Shown here piece after piece: positions 1 to 4,972 of a DNA stretch of 7,739 nucleotides. Positions within the stretch are counted from its first letter, which is position 1. Every line of letters starts with the position of its first letter. The translations under genes were made by a program, and so were the position numbers. The notes beneath the pieces are model-generated. The model had not been told where the DNA came from and searched no databases. It saw only the letters and a program-made list of their open reading frames with translations. This stretch comes from a virus (taxonomy: Duplodnaviria; Heunggongvirae; Uroviricota; Caudoviricetes), in IMG/VR virus record IMGVR_UViG_2695420487_000009; one strand, written 5' to 3'.

Positions 1-573
1 CGCGTCCGCACTGAATGTCCCCTCCGCGCCCTGGGTGAATGCCGAACCACCACGACAGCATGGTACCAGCAGGATCCCCGCGTTATTCGGGATATACGGG
101 AGCAGTTTTTTGGCAATATGTAAACCCTGGCCGACACAGCCGTACTGCCCTTTGCTCAGGTCAGCCCTCGGATGATTCAGCGTACTCATATCCTGCACAT
201 CATGCAGACAGTGGTCAGCCGGAATAATATCGTTATATCTGCAGGCAGCCCCGCCCGGCGTCACTGTACTGCGGCGCGCCAGCTGTTTAATGCGCGGATC
301 CGGAGCATCGTATGAATCCGGCAGCGGAAGCCCTTCACCGTAAGCCATGGCATTGGACTGCCCGGCCAGTACGATGACGTAGTACCAATCCGGCTCAGAT
401 GAAGGGCCGACCTGTGGCTCTCCTTCAATAGCCACCGCCTGCATCAGTGTGTACGGCGTAATGGCAACCGGTCCGCCGTATGGCTGCCAGCCCTCTTTCA
501 GTTTGTGTGTCAGCTTTTCCGCAAGATCTGACGGCGACGCCGCCCTGACAACATCATAATGTTTAATCGACAT
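1..573 (-). CDS. Prophage sialate O-acetylesterase-like protein (nanS-p-like; DUF1737 N-terminal domain followed by SGNH/SASA esterase domain); only the first ~191 codons are in the window, gene continues past position 1
   Basis: Reverse-complement translation from the ATG at 573 gives MSIKHYDVVRAASPSDLAEKLTHKLKEGWQPYGGPVAITPYTLMQAVAIEGEPQVGPSSEPDWYYVIVLAGQSNAMAYGEGLPLPDSYDAPDPRIKQLARR... with no stop before the window edge. The N-terminus looks like the DUF1737 fold found at the start of prophage esterases, and GQSNAMAYG is the catalytic-serine block of SASA/SGNH sialate O-acetylesterases. An SD-like GGGAG lies 7 nt upstream of the ATG. Position (downstream of Q and a moron) matches the stx-nanS-p arrangement of Stx phages. 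Confidence 0.7.
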   Translation of the reverse strand, partial: MSIKHYDVVRAASPSDLAEKLTHKLKEGWQPYGGPVAITPYTLMQAVAIEGEPQVGPSSEPDWYYVIVLAGQSNAMAYGEGLPLPDSYDAPDPRIKQLARRSTVTPGGAACRYNDIIPADHCLHDVQDMSTLNHPRADLSKGQYGCVGQGLHIAKKLLPYIPNNAGILLVPCCRGGSAFTQGAEGTFSADA

Positions 574-659: not shown

Positions 660-685
660 AAAAAAAAGCTGCGCAATGCGCAGCC
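660..685 (-). terminator. Rho-independent terminator read on the minus strand (7-bp GC-rich stem, 3-nt loop, followed by a U9 tract)
   Basis: Plus strand 660-668 is A9 and 669-685 is GCTGCGC-AAT-GCGCAGC (perfect inverted repeat). On the minus strand this is a hairpin followed by nine U. It lies between the membrane-protein moron and the esterase gene. Confidence 0.55.
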
Positions 686-1114
686 AGAACTCACAAGGAA
701 AATGATAAAAGGAATAACACTAGTGATGTACGCATGGCGCCTCCCGCTAAGTTCTGCAATGATCAAACAGAACTCGCTACGTGCCCTTAAAACTCGATCA
801 TTTAGCCCCTCCAAGGAGGATTCACCATGCGGTTGGTTTTTTAATAAACAGTAAACAAAAAAGTCAAGAATTATTCATTCTGTTCTTTCATCATCGGCCA
901 CAGCAATACCACAATGCCGCAGACCAGAGCGCCATCAGTCAGTACCAACATTATCCTGCTGGTGAAATCCATCATCACCATCACTAAAAGCAGGATCACA
1001 ACAGCAAGCAGACACAGTTTATAAAACAATGTTCAGAAAACGCATTCAGCATGCCTGAGGTTCTATTCCTACGAATAGCCAACTTGCAACTTAAAATATT
1101 ATTTATGCAGCCAA

Positions 1115-1831
1115 TTAAATTCTGGTCCTTACAATATCAACCTGAAGATTCTTATCTTGTGCTGATTGATAAATGACAAACCTTTTACTACCTGCATTGA
1201 AAGAAGTAGACAAAACCAGACAATTATCATAACGAGCAAGAACATAATACCAACCATCATTATAATTAATCATTTCATATTCTTTCTTAAACTGTGGTTT
1301 GTAATATCCTGTCAGAAATGAAAAAAGCCAGAAATATGCCACAAAAGCAATCATCACAATCTCAAAAAAATGTTTTTTTATAAATGGCTTATCATAGAAG
1401 CATGATACCGATAAAAATCGCCCATAAGATCTTATCGAAATTGTAACCGCCAGCGCAATCGCTGCTGACAGTAGCAAAAGAGGTACCTGAATCTTCTGTC
1501 TCAATATAGAAAACTCAATAATTGCCGGCACAAACAATAATTCCACAGCAAAATAAAGGCGAAATACATTTAGCTCTTGCATAGAATGTTTTCTTTTCAC
1601 TGCGAAAAAGAATACAACACCAATACCCCAACCGATAAGAAATATAGCAATGACGATAACTGCAAAAAATAAACTTCTGGCAACATCATCAACACCTGCA
1701 CCTACAATCCACCATGGGAAGCCGTAGTAAAAAGAAGTACCCCATCCATAGAAATAAGCACTCCCCCATCCAAGGCATCCCATGTAGGCAATAAAAAGTG
1801 AAGAACTCCTGAGCAGCGCACCATCCTTCAT
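1115..1831 (-). CDS. Polytopic inner-membrane protein of unknown function (about 5 predicted TM helices plus a ~50-aa C-terminal soluble tail); AT-rich moron downstream of Q
   Basis: Open frame 1115..1873 on the minus strand (252 codons). Hydrophobic runs include SLFIAYMGCLGWGSAYFYGWGTSFYYGFPWWIVGAG, SLFFAVIVIAIFLIGWGIGVVFFFAV, LYFAVELLFVPAIIEFSIL, VPLLLLSAAIALAVTISI and FFEIVMIAFVAYFWLFSFLTGYY. I favour the third in-frame ATG (1831, MKDGALLRSSS...) because it is preceded by a G-rich SD-like GGGGTGG, and the first ATG (1873) sits inside a candidate -10 element; 1873 and 1858 remain possible starts. Composition is clearly more AT-rich than the flanking Q and esterase genes. Confidence 0.6.
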   Translation of the reverse strand: MKDGALLRSSSLFIAYMGCLGWGSAYFYGWGTSFYYGFPWWIVGAGVDDVARSLFFAVIVIAIFLIGWGIGVVFFFAVKRKHSMQELNVFRLYFAVELLFVPAIIEFSILRQKIQVPLLLLSAAIALAVTISIRSYGRFLSVSCFYDKPFIKKHFFEIVMIAFVAYFWLFSFLTGYYKPQFKKEYEMINYNDGWYYVLARYDNCLVLSTSFNAGSKRFVIYQSAQDKNLQVDIVRTRI

Positions 1832-2010
1832 AACCACCCCAATACAAGATGGTAACATTGGCTTACAACTCATAACAAAAGCAATTCAATGCCGTCAAGA
1901 GGTTACAGGCTAAAAAAACTCTATTACATTGCAGTCAGCATGTTTACTACACAAATACAATTCAGAGCATAAAAACTACTCGGCGGCAGGTTATTGAGCT
2001 CATCAATGAC

Positions 2011-2067
2011 ATGTAAAAAATGCCCATTATTGGTGTCAAGTTTCCCCAAAGTTATTCAAAAAGTCAA
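2011..2067 (-). promoter_or_regulatory. PR'-like Q-dependent late promoter with qut-type architecture
   Basis: On the minus strand just after the Q stop: TTGACT (2067..2062), a 17-nt spacer TTTTGAATAACTTTGGG, GAAACT (2044..2039), then TGACACCAATAATGGG. This parallels my recollection of lambda PR' (TTGACT-TATTGAATAAAATTGGG-TAAATT-TGACTCAACGATGGG), including the Q-binding spacer and a start-proximal -10-like pause element. The -10 hexamer here is weaker, and an overlapping TTGACA-17-TTACAT alternative exists. Confidence 0.5.
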
Positions 2068-2109
2068 TATTATGCCGTTAATATGTTGCCATCCGTGGCA
2101 ATCATGGCG

Positions 2110-2733
2110 CTAACGTGTGATCGCATTCAAAATGTTGTCTGCGATTGACTCTTCCTTGTGGCATTGCACAACCAGAGCGTCATACAGCGGCTTAACAGTG
2201 CGTGACCAGGTGGGTTGAGTAAGGTTTGGGATTAGCATCGTTACAGCGCGATATGCGGCGCTTGCTGGCATTCTTGAATAGCCGACACCTTTGCATCTTC
2301 CGCATTCTTTCTCAACAACTCTCCCCCACAGCTCTGTTTTGGCTATATCAACTGCCCGACCTGTACCGTGGCAATCTCTGCATCTTGCGCCCGGCGTCGC
2401 GGCACTACGGCAATAATCCGCATAAGCAAATATTGCGAGCACTTGCAGTACCTTTGCCTTAGTATTTCCTTCGAGCTTTGCCACACCACGGTATTTCCCC
2501 GATACCTTGTGTGCAAATTGCATCAGATAGTTGATAGCCTTTTGTTTGTCGTTCTGGCTGAGTTCGTGCTTACCACAGAATGCAGCCATTCCGAATCCGG
2601 CTTGTGATTGCGCCATTCCCATAGCAGCCATCACATCAGTACCGGAAAGAGAGTCAGAAGCCGTAGCCCGTGGTGAGTCGCTCATCATCGGGCTTTTTGG
2701 CGAATGAAATTTAGCTACGCTTTCGAGTCTCAT
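2110..2733 (-). CDS. Q: Late-gene antiterminator Q (lambda type)
   Basis: 207-aa product [207 protein letters not shown] matches lambda Q as I recall it over essentially its full length, including the CxxC...CxxC zinc-binding region. Its ATG overlaps the stop of the upstream phosphatase gene (ATGA), and it is followed by a PR'-like promoter. Confidence 0.95.
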
Positions 2734-3395
2734 GCGCCTTCTCCCTGTACCTGAATCAATGTGAGGTTTCCGCAGAACACTGCGCCGGTATCGATATACA
2801 TCTGGTTGGCAAACTTGAGTGGTTTCACTGCTGGCGTATGACCAAAGATGAACGTGTCCGCGCCTTTGATTTCTTTCACGATCCCGTCTTGTGAGTTGCT
2901 GATTCGTTCGCGGTTCCAGATTACCTGCTGATGATCAACTGGCTTTCCAAACTCGTATTCGTCACAAGGATAATCGGCGTGGCAGATGACATATTTTTTA
3001 TCTTTGCTCACCAGTTCGATGATTAACGGAAGTTCTTCTGCTTTATGGGCAAGAGCTTTAGCCAGAATTTCTTTGTCGTAATCGAGATTAAAGAACCAGC
3101 CACCGCCATTAAGCAGCCAGTGATTGACGTTTCCACGCTCTGATAAGCCATCAATCATCATGTGCTCATGGTTTCCACGTACAGCTCTGAACCAGGGGAA
3201 TGTGATTAATTCCAGGCATTCAACGTTCTCTGCACCACGATCAACCAAATCGCCAACCGAGATAAGCAGGTCTTTTTTGGTGTCGAATCCTATCGTCTCC
3301 AGTTTTTTCATCAGGTTCGTGTAGCATCCGTGCAGATCGCCAACTACCCAAATATTTCGGTATTTGCTGCCATCAATTTTTTCGTAATAGCGCAT
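2730..3395 (-). CDS. ninI: Serine/threonine protein phosphatase, lambda ORF221 type (calcineurin-like metallophosphoesterase)
   Basis: From the ATG at 3395 the product is 221 aa, [25 protein letters not shown]...GDLVDRG...GNHE..., carrying the GDxHG, GDxxDRG and GNHE phosphoesterase signature blocks and matching lambda phosphatase as I recall it. The longer frame from 3470 (246 aa) adds an N-terminal extension that overlaps ninH and is not expected. Confidence 0.9.
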
Positions 3396-3579
3396 CTCTT
3401 TCACTCCATCCGCGATGAACCATGAGAACGTCGTTGACGATGGCGTGCATTTTCCCGTCTTTATCATCAACGTATTTTCTGACCGTACCGCGACTACATT
3501 TCAGTCTGCGTGCTACTTCTGTCTGGTTTCCGTATGCTTCAACGAGCATGTCTGGAATGGTTTTTACTGAGAACGTCAT
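3373..3579 (-). CDS. ninH: NinH (68-aa lambda nin-region protein, small DNA-binding-like)
   Basis: 68-aa product [68 protein letters not shown] corresponds to lambda NinH in length and sequence as I recall it. Its start overlaps the ninG stop and its end overlaps the ninI start, the typical nin-operon coupling. Confidence 0.85.
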
Positions 3580-4178
3580 GCGGCCTCACTTCTGCTATTT
3601 CGCAGGTCTTTGAGTTTCTGCTGATACTCCGCCTTAATGGCCCTGCACTCTTCGACAGTCCAGCGATGGCGGTTATGGTTTGATTCGATTTCGTCTACTG
3701 CTTCCTGCCCGATGCGGTTAATCAGTTCGACGCGATACGGAACGAGATTTCCGCTTTTATGTTGGTTGCACACCACGCATTGCTTGTGAATATTGCGTTC
3801 ATCAAATCGGAGTTGAGGCGCCGCAGCAGTTGTCCGGTAATGCCCGGCATCCCACTGAGCAGACGTGAGCGTTCCGCACGAGATACATGGTAAGTCGCGA
3901 TCTCTTTCTCTGATGAAGGCGTTTACGGCTTGTTGGGCTTGTTTAATCCAGTAACTGCGGGGCTTTAAGGCGAGTTTTCGAATCTTCAGTTTATCTTTCT
4001 GTTTCTGCTCCTCTCGTCGTCGTTTCTTCTCTGCTGCTTTTTCCGCTTTTTCGCGTTCTTTGCTTCGTCGTTCGAGTGCTATCTTGGTTCCACAAATCTC
4101 ATTACACCAATATTGATTTTGATATTTTGGTATAAACCATTCATTGCAACATTTACATTTCCTTCGATAGATTCGCAT
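3576..4178 (-). CDS. ninG: NinG/Rap-family recombination-promoting protein with a divergent N-terminal ~30 residues
   Basis: From the ATG at 4178 (strong SD AAGGAG 5 nt upstream) the 200-aa product is [104 protein letters not shown]...[70 protein letters not shown]. From GTKIALE onward it matches lambda NinG as I recall it; the first ~30 residues are divergent and encoded by AT-rich codons. The ORF-track start at 4238 lies inside the upstream endonuclease gene and is rejected. Confidence 0.85.
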
Positions 4179-4719
4179 AAGTGCTCCTTTCGTTGCCGGA
4201 AAAATCACCGTAATACTTATCTCGGGCTTCTTCAGCAACTAGTACCGCTAACTCCAGATCATCAAAGCATCCGAAGTGTTTACTCTTGCCATGGAATCCT
4301 AGCCTAACATTCCATTTTTTCTGTCGTTTGTGCCAAGTAACCCCTCTGCAACCTGATTTGCTATTCTTTCGGATCCTTATATTTCTTGAATTTTCTATTG
4401 GCAGGCATTCTCTTAAATTTTCTGGCCTATTGTCGGTCCTAATTCCATTAACGTGGTCAATTTGACCAGCAGGCCAACGATTATGAGTTATGTAAAAAAC
4501 TAAGACGTGAGTTTTATATCTACGCCCATCTATCATGATCATTGAATAACCGTTGGAATCAAAAGTTCCAGCAACACTATTTAATGCTATCCTTCCCTGA
4601 GTGGGAACTTTCCATCTAAATACCCCGGTAGATTTATCGAAACTTAGTAACTCAAATATCCTTTTAACAGTTAAATCTTCTCTTTTACGGTTACATCGTC
4701 TTCGCGCTGGTTTAGCCAT
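4153..4719 (-). CDS. HNH homing endonuclease with C-terminal AP2-type DNA-binding domain, translated from the original ninG start codon (first 9 residues MAKPARRRC are ninG-derived)
   Basis: Product [188 protein letters not shown]. The block [27 protein letters not shown] is an HNH_3-type catalytic motif, and [49 protein letters not shown] is an AP2-like domain; this pairing is typical of free-standing phage homing endonucleases. The region is visibly AT-rich relative to the flanking nin genes. The upstream GTG at 4800 is an alternative but less likely start. Confidence 0.8.
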
Positions 4720-4828
4720 CGCCTTCTTCCTCCGTAATGGTTTTCTGAATTTGGCCACCTGAACAGAGCTCACCAAAGCTATGGATGTCGGTATTTCCAC
4801 AATACCAAGATGGCGAAAATAACTGCAT
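4712..4828 (-). CDS. ninF: NinF-like small cysteine-containing protein (38 aa)
   Basis: Minus-strand frame from ATG 4828: [38 protein letters not shown], ending in a TAA that overlaps the ninG-derived ATG. Termini resemble lambda NinF (M.SPS... and ...EEEDDG) as I recall it, and the position immediately 5' of ninG fits. It falls below the ORF-track length cut-off; short length makes this moderate confidence. Confidence 0.5.
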   Translation of the reverse strand: MQLFSPSWYCGNTDIHSFGELCSGGQIQKTITEEEGDG

Positions 4829-4918
4829 GATAAGCCTCAGGGAAAAGGGAAGACACTACCCCCGATAATTCAGAAACAAATCGAAATACATGAACTAAAG
4901 AAAAAACCACAACAAACA

Positions 4919-4972
4919 GAAATAGAAATAGAAATAGAAATAGAAATAGAAATAGAAATAGAAATAGAAATA
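4919..4972. repeat. Perfect tandem hexanucleotide repeat (GAAATA)x9
   Basis: Direct reading: nine uninterrupted GAAATA units, 54 bp, in the intergenic region between the minus-strand nin genes and the divergent plus-strand 617-codon gene. Confidence 0.95.

Follow-up and report, generated by a model that had tools for sequence, protein, structure and literature searches.

The window analysed here, a 7,739-nucleotide stretch of IMG/VR virus record IMGVR_UViG_2695420487_000009, has the overall content of a lambdoid E. coli prophage late region, carried on the minus strand. NinG (4238..3576), NinH, and a NinI-type phosphatase (3470..2730), in that gene order, are followed by the gene for a 207-aa antiterminator of the lambda Q family (2110..2733; Pfam PF03589, E = 4e-57), and the intergenic region under study lies between Q and a membrane-protein ORF. 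This ORF is the first of two cargo genes on the same strand: cargo gene 1 (1115..1831; phrog_1521) codes for a 238-aa multi-pass membrane protein of the TfpB family (PF27470), and cargo gene 2 (871..1029; PF13064, E = 3e-14; phrog_1470) for a 52-aa small membrane protein resembling DUF3927/TciB. Downstream lie the gene for the sRNA PasD, an EcOnc13 homologue (about 830->660; 660..867 together with a promoter-like site), and the 5' part of a gene (1..570; PF08410 and PF03629) for a DUF1737 and SASA (NanS-p-like) sialate O-acetylesterase. GC content is about 0.50 in Q and drops to 0.28-0.41 in the cargo. A tRNA scan of the window gave no tRNA genes; those typical of Stx-phage PR' regions are absent.

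Directly 5' of NinG, and overlapping its 5' end, is an ORF with HNH_3 and AP2 endonuclease domains (4153-4800, minus strand), which, within the nin region, has the look of an insertion of the homing-endonuclease type. Between this gene and a divergent low-GC ORF of 617 aa (5207-7060, plus strand; phrog_9230) there is a perfect tandem repeat of a hexamer (AAATAG x 9.8; 4914-4972), which lies about 235 nt before the ATG of that ORF and might affect promoter spacing or phase variation. The 617-aa ORF, an insertion within the nin region that reads from the other strand, has no match in Pfam, NCBIfam, or PADLOC; it is labelled 'hypothetical' in O26:H11 11368 and is probably another moron. The end of an IS3-family element, present in thousands of copies across E. 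coli genomes, occupies about 7634-7739, in place of the NinE-side flank known from O26 and other genomes.

The elements of the late promoter PR' and of qut can be followed from the Q stop codon onward, all on the minus strand. The spacer between the stop codon and the -35 (2068..2109) is identical to lambda at 39 of 42 positions, and leads into a -35 hexamer, TTGACT, that matches lambda completely (2062..2067; 6/6), a 17-nt spacer containing the predicted Q-binding element (QBE), TTTTGAATAACTTTGGG (2045..2061; 14/17), and a -10 hexamer, GAAACT, where lambda has TAAATT (2039..2044; 4/6). The last T of this -10 is overlapped by TTGACA (2034..2039; lambda TTGACT, 5/6), which we take to be a -35-like element. 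Then come an extra C (2032), which is an inserted base relative to lambda, the -10-like sigma-dependent pause element AATAAT (2026..2031; lambda AACGAT, 4/6), and a GGG discriminator-like element (2023..2025; 3/3). Given the one inserted base, all of these stand in lambda register, with TTGACA, CC, AATAAT, and GGG filling 2039-2023, and transcription is predicted to start at A2031 or C2032. In lambda, AACGAT occupies +1 to +6 and is followed by the GGG discriminator-like element and a pause at +16 (PMC4005639); the layout of the cassette, and the role of the -35-like DNA segment in the repositioning of sigma region 4, have been described (PMC9388147). With a PF03589 Q directly 5' of PR', the locus belongs with the lambda-family Q-dependent regulatory cassettes, and judged by its sequence the PR'/qut core is real, far beyond chance.

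The QBE was assessed against the natural variation across the sampled loci, among which the cores TTGAATAA and TTGGG are near-invariant. Both cores are kept in the window, and the positions at which its spacer differs from that of lambda (2, 11, and 12) are naturally variable among phages. The window Q is identical to lambda Q at 205 of 207 residues (the differences being T101I and V205I), and, together with the match of the Q-binding spacer and the common register of the elements, this bears out the original prediction that Q and qut are co-conserved with lambda; we infer that Q acts on the qut of the window. Two features differ from lambda immediately 3' of the promoter: AATAAT is nearer consensus than AACGAT, and the extra nucleotide that separates TTGACA from the pause element is also present in HK97. 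Taken as a sigma70 promoter, PR' has a -35 identical to that of lambda and 17-nt spacing, and a -10 that agrees with consensus at three of six positions (3/6), has lost T-12, and falls below the scan threshold; by consensus it is weaker than that of lambda, as had been proposed.

Comparison with lambda (NC_001416) by BLAST aligns window 3619->2035 with lambda 43000-44584 at 97.1% identity, and no other segment of the window rises above noise, including any remnant of 6S/tR'. Similarity stops at about +9/+10 of the transcript, and conservation does not extend to the lambda pause-site region (+10..+25), with only 4 of the 20 nt after GGG (2022-2003) identical. These nucleotides fall within a class-D-specific initial transcribed segment, CAUUUUUUACAUGUCAUUGAUGAGCUCA (1995..2022), which matches neither lambda nor phage 434, and which includes a predicted pause zone, U6, at 2020-2015. 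For the rest of the leader, alignment to lambda 44596-45190 gives a local score of 13 (11.6 +/- 1.6 for shuffles), which is at chance level. The expectation that lambda similarity would end behind the pause element was therefore correct as to the boundary, although the end lies at about +9/+10 rather than at +25, and the downstream sequence is, as had been claimed, unrelated to lambda 6S/tR' and not collinear with it through tR'.

A 28-mer from the Q-stop spacer retrieved >120 IMG/VR loci, and behind the same Q/QBE these have four classes of initial transcribed sequence, all of which split directly 3' of the pause element. Class A is lambda-like, class B is HK97-like, class C is small, and class D, to which the window belongs, reads TGACACCAATAATGGGC[G/A]TTTTTTAC. 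This pattern supports a module boundary just past the pause-inducing element. By megablast, the entire stretch from the end of Q to the cargo is found in phage 2B8 (98.5%); phage 434 shares the part that starts at about window 1994 (98.9%), there preceded by a Q82-type antiterminator and an annotated terminator. Both forms occur in EPEC E2348/69, one in PP4 with a lambda-type Q and the other in PP2 with a Q82-type Q, and over the span from the Q stop to PasD the PP4 locus matches the window at 99.2% identity. Among 5426 complete E. coli genomes, the lambda-Q junction occurs in 570 and the Q82 form in about 620-632. Because this cargo block is also found behind a Q82-type Q (434, EPEC PP2), and in Yersinia a homologue lies behind a Q21-type Q, the arrangement is a swap of the whole late-leader module, which is common and widespread, rather than a private moron insertion into a lambda late region. 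The recombination point immediately downstream of qut to which delivery of the moron had been attributed is thus recovered as a module boundary just 3' of the pause element, but not as the site of an insertion.

Judged by its SNPs, the lambda-like block is itself mosaic. A SNP map of 2272-2343 (Q codons ~131-154) places a breakpoint within Q near 2281/2272: the arm codons at 2343-2281 are lambda-like (L135, R138, V140), and from 2272 through qut all informative sites match the class D lineage, as represented by phage 2B8, and not lambda. V205I is present in 21/21 class-D loci, and about 17 of the 21 add R138I and V140A; R138I is also absent from a few class-D loci other than the window. The Q proteins of EPEC PP4, the O26:H11 11368 prophage, and phage 2B8, like those of most class-D cassettes, carry L135Q/R138I/V140A in the zinc-ribbon arm, where the window Q is lambda-like. 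This arm (residues 114-152) contacts QBE positions 11-13 and sigma region 4 (PMC9388147), and the class-specific changes R138I/V140A may either be an adaptation to the altered geometry of the class-D qut or simply be linked to it. The exact Q and qut pairing of the window, a lambda-like arm with a class-D qut, is rare (7/5426 complete E. coli genomes).

The variant -10 is typical of the class, with GAAACT in 20 of 22 class-D loci (TAAATT in L075 and TAAGTT in L123). Phage 2B8 also has GAAACT, with the same PR'/qut and leader as the window, and was plaque-purified and amplified prior to sequencing (PMC6969025). Because this viable phage carries the same promoter, qut, and leader, a PR'/qut of the window type can, by analogy, support a lytic cycle.

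Between PR' and the cargo (2031-1832) we found no hairpin with a U-run that is better than chance, and thus no tR' such as belongs to the lambda-family cassette. Alignment to 434 identifies 1971..1994 as a relic of the 434/Q82-type promoter-proximal terminator. The intact 434 structure, AAACCCGCU-GCCG-AGUGGGUUU followed by U8, has a folding energy of -12.2 kcal/mol (z = -4.6); in the window a 4-nt deletion and substitutions, with loss of the 3' arm of the stem, leave -1.5 kcal/mol, and the relic is the same in 22/22 class-D loci (11 distinct leader sequences). With a detector for long interrupted stems, every class-A locus (49/49) gave lambda tR' at +184, every class-B locus (40/40) gave a compact terminator at +50, and class D gave only an AU-rich imperfect 51-nt hairpin abutting a U7 run (1912..1969). 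This weak candidate, at -7.5 kcal/mol (tool) or -9.3 (scan), was rejected as a leader terminator, as it is at chance level (z = +0.20, with 105/200 shuffles as good; lambda tR' has z = -4.4 in the shuffle comparison). The search of the leader for a tR'-equivalent terminator by RNA folding, which had been suggested as a check, therefore gave only the relic and this chance-level hairpin.

The first strong intrinsic terminator downstream of PR' is that of PasD, GGCUGCGCAUUGCGCAGC followed by U8 (660..685; -11.4 kcal/mol, z = -3.0), which is conserved across class-D loci and lies about 1.35 kb downstream of PR', past two ORFs and PasD itself. A terminator scan of 600-2200 reports it (685-667) as the only terminator on the minus strand. 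By these sequence comparisons class D is an exception among the sampled lambda-family cassettes in being without a convincing promoter-proximal terminator, although partial, non-canonical, or Rho-dependent termination could occur in the leader at the U5 and U7 runs.

The PasD locus aligns near-identically with PasD1 and PasD2 of E2348/69, has a 3' stem-loop and U-tract, and lies downstream of Q. In EPEC, where it has been mapped and where coordinates and a probe are available, PasD is an abundant sRNA that depends on Hfq (PMC8550237 supplement); it is related to STnc100, has Q among its conserved neighbour genes, and in phage 2B8 lies directly 5' of the esterase gene (preprint 10.64898/2026.05.13.724894). 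Consistent with this relationship, a sub-threshold Rfam STnc100 match at 860-656 (41 bits, gathering score 47) corresponds to PasD, and an Rfam search of the leader returned no family. A promoter-like TTGACT (867-862), with TTAAAA/TAAAAA 17-18 nt on and ending about 7 nt 5' of the estimated PasD start, suggests that PasD has its own promoter besides any PR' read-through. The esterase gene, whose counterparts in 434, 2B8, and EPEC are annotated as coding for a SASA family esterase, starts 3' of the PasD terminator.

Cargo gene 1 likely starts at the ATG at 1831, which is preceded by a GGGG Shine-Dalgarno sequence (1840-1837); alternative starts lie upstream at 1858 and 1873, and an intergenic span of 1874-2109 presupposes the longest ORF. 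Assignment of its product to the TfpB family follows from PF27470, which is found on 108/108 homologues with E down to 7e-152; local searches of Pfam, from which the PF27470 model is absent, NCBIfam, and PADLOC gave no match for this protein, and a literature search on 'TfpB' returned no relevant paper. An AlphaFold model has about five helices and a C-terminal beta domain, at low confidence (mean pLDDT 62). We note that TfpB homologues recur beside virulence or phage regulatory genes: after a Q21-type antiterminator in Yersinia (L128-L130), where the Q21-to-TfpB leader has no homology to that of the window, beside LT enterotoxin A/B and STb genes in ETEC (L131-L133), and beside an SseJ-like lipase gene in Salmonella (L127).

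Expression of closely related loci can be read from DESeq2 BaseMean values for uninduced EPEC E2348/69 (PMC8550237 supplement). In PP4 these are 0.4-2.3 for the nin genes, 6.0 for Q, 147 for the cargo, 5.4 for holin, and 3.9 for lysozyme; in PP2 they are 69 for the Q82-type Q, 226 for the cargo, 37 for DUF3927, 11017 for PasD2, 102 for the esterase, and 3.5 for holin. The PP4 cargo is thus about 25-fold over Q and holin, with counts that are not assignable to one prophage copy. The cargo genes of PP2 and PP4 differ at 3/717 nt and their reads cross-map, so the RNA-seq does not distinguish the copy without a terminator from the one behind an intact terminator. Per nucleotide, the PP4 cargo is still about 21-fold over Q and about 8-fold over holin, and therefore the signal does not come from spontaneous induction. 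EPEC contains Q-independent cargo mRNA. The PR' of lambda is constitutive, a property also predicted for the PR' of Stx phages (PMC7547250), and PR' is the most plausible source of this mRNA.

An stx-like moron would have its cargo 3' of tR' and silent without Q; in the window, by contrast, the first strong terminator comes only after the cargo. Because of this position the cargo is most likely Q-independent, and it is probably transcribed without Q and boosted by Q upon induction. With no better-than-chance terminator before the cargo, and with cargo counts of that height in PP4, the proposal that the cargo is under Q-dependent late control, as stx is, is not supported.

The reading that we favor, and which we consider somewhat better than evenly supported, is that a lambda-type PR'/qut is fused at about +10 to a late-leader module with a relic terminator, that the cargo is expressed without Q, and that the PasD terminator serves as the equivalent of tR'. 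RNA polymerase would initiate at about A2031, and sigma70 would re-bind the near-consensus AATAAT-GGG at +1..+9, so that the complex would pause at about +16 in the U6 run. Q, if present, would bind the QBE between the -35 and the -10 and load onto the paused complex. At about +10 this cassette is joined to the widely distributed module for the TfpB-family protein, the DUF3927/TciB-like protein, PasD, and the esterase. Constitutive PR' transcripts would traverse both membrane-protein genes without Q and end at the PasD terminator (685-660), and Q would be required only to pass this terminator into the esterase and lysis genes. A more specific version is possible but rather unlikely, and we offer it tentatively: loss of the leader terminator would let constitutive PR' drive a two-membrane-protein operon expressed in the lysogen, and Q read-through would abolish formation of the PasD 3' end at the tR'-like terminator, coupling PasD to the lysis-lysogeny switch. 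If true, this coupling would be analogous to that of lambda 6S RNA and StxS, but with protein-coding cargo within the 'short' transcript.

Several other explanations of the cargo mRNA can be considered. The leader held in common with 434 and EPEC PP2 (1832..1994, by alignment) might contain a promoter of the cargo's own, either CII-activated or a weak sigma70 promoter, independent of PR' and Q, with PR' having a minor role in lysogens. Candidate sites are a CII-like TTGT-N6-TTGT at 1878-1865, annotated as a CII site in the 434 record (OL657226), and a weak sigma70-like TTGACG-N18-TATGAG at 1898-1869, both on the minus strand. The similar cargo counts in PP2, which are at least equal to those of PP4 in spite of an intact terminator after PR', hint at a promoter within the shared leader, and the weak -10 of the window's PR' points the same way; however, the PP2 counts may derive from PP4 through cross-mapping. 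Moreover, no promoter-like site in the leader passes the scan on the minus strand, the candidate -10 TATGAG lacks the conserved final T, and CII is not produced in stable lysogens, so that we regard this explanation as unlikely. If the CII site is real, the cargo would be induced while lysogeny is established.

Strict control of the cargo by Q, as for stx, would need a functional leader terminator that halts PR' transcripts in lysogens and through which Q reads. The U5 run after the relic (1975-1971) and the U7 run after the 51-nt hairpin (1918-1912) are in keeping with such a terminator, as is the presence of the same cargo behind an intact terminator in 434 and EPEC PP2, and an untranslated leader of 200 nt could permit Rho action. 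But the stability left in the relic and the z-score of the 51-nt hairpin are far from those of real terminators (z = -3 to -4.6), the leader is not C-rich (C 30 and G 44 of 200 nt), and cargo mRNA in uninduced EPEC greatly exceeds that of Q and holin, which together make this account quite improbable. Least credible of all, and to our minds very improbable, is that PR'/qut is a decaying remnant in a degraded prophage, with neither Q-dependent nor PR'-driven expression of any significance: the weak -10 without T-12, a mismatched Q allele without the R138I/V140A that accompany most class-D qut sites, the rarity of the exact Q and qut pairing, and the IS3-family element in the nin region fit such decay, but the same PR'/qut, GAAACT included, works in plaque-forming phage 2B8, Q is intact at 207 aa, and a few other class-D loci are likewise without R138I.

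The fusion of PR'/qut to a late-leader module with cargo ahead of the PasD terminator is ordinary lambdoid mosaicism plus one modestly interesting variant feature, and involves no new mechanism. Its interest lies in the position of an accessory gene relative to tR', which sets its expression: a gene upstream is expressed constantly in the lysogen, and one downstream, such as that for Shiga toxin, upon induction only. About 10% of complete E. coli genomes carry the cassette, among them those of O157, O26, O103, O111, O145, and EPEC, and if the favored reading is true, then two uncharacterised membrane proteins are constitutive products of lysogenic conversion, and the PasD sRNA terminator is a checkpoint that Q must pass to reach the lysis genes. 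The cassette also provides a natural allelic series for Q loading, in which qut is with or without the extra base, the pause element is consensus-like, and the Q arm varies.

Compared with the lambda Q cassette, the window has a Q that is 99% identical, an identical -35, a 17-nt spacer with conserved QBE cores, a -35-like TTGACN overlapping the -10, and a -10-like element and GGG at the transcript start. It departs from lambda in its GAAACT -10, a gap to the pause element that is 1 nt longer, and a pause element closer to consensus, as well as in having no homology past about +9, no 6S RNA or tR', and a first strong terminator that is preceded by two ORFs and an sRNA gene. The HK97-type PR' (class B) resembles the window in its lambda-family Q and QBE and in the 1-nt longer spacing from the -10 to the pause element; unlike the window, it has a compact terminator at +50 with no cargo ahead of it, and its transcript begins with a different sequence. 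The Stx phages 933W/Sp5, with the order PR', StxS, tR', stx, likewise carry accessory genes directly 3' of the Q/PR' cassette and 5' of the lysis genes, an Hfq-binding sRNA tied to the PR'-proximal terminator, and a NanS-p-type esterase further downstream. However, their Q is of a different family, and their stx lies 3' of tR' (258 nt from PR'; PMC7547250) and is Q-dependent, whereas the cargo of the window precedes the first strong terminator. Phage 434 (OL657226) and EPEC PP2 share with the window the leader from the terminator on, the TfpB gene, the DUF3927 gene, PasD, and the esterase (~97-99% identity), but their antiterminator is of the Q82 type and has its own PR', and their promoter-proximal terminator is intact (the -12.2 kcal/mol structure in 434). 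EPEC PP4, the O26:H11 11368 prophage, and phage 2B8, which represent the class D lambda-Q cassette, have an identical PR'/qut and the same relic, cargo, and PasD (99.2% for PP4 and 98.5% for 2B8), although PP4 and the O26 prophage, unlike the window, run straight to the lysis genes without an esterase gene.
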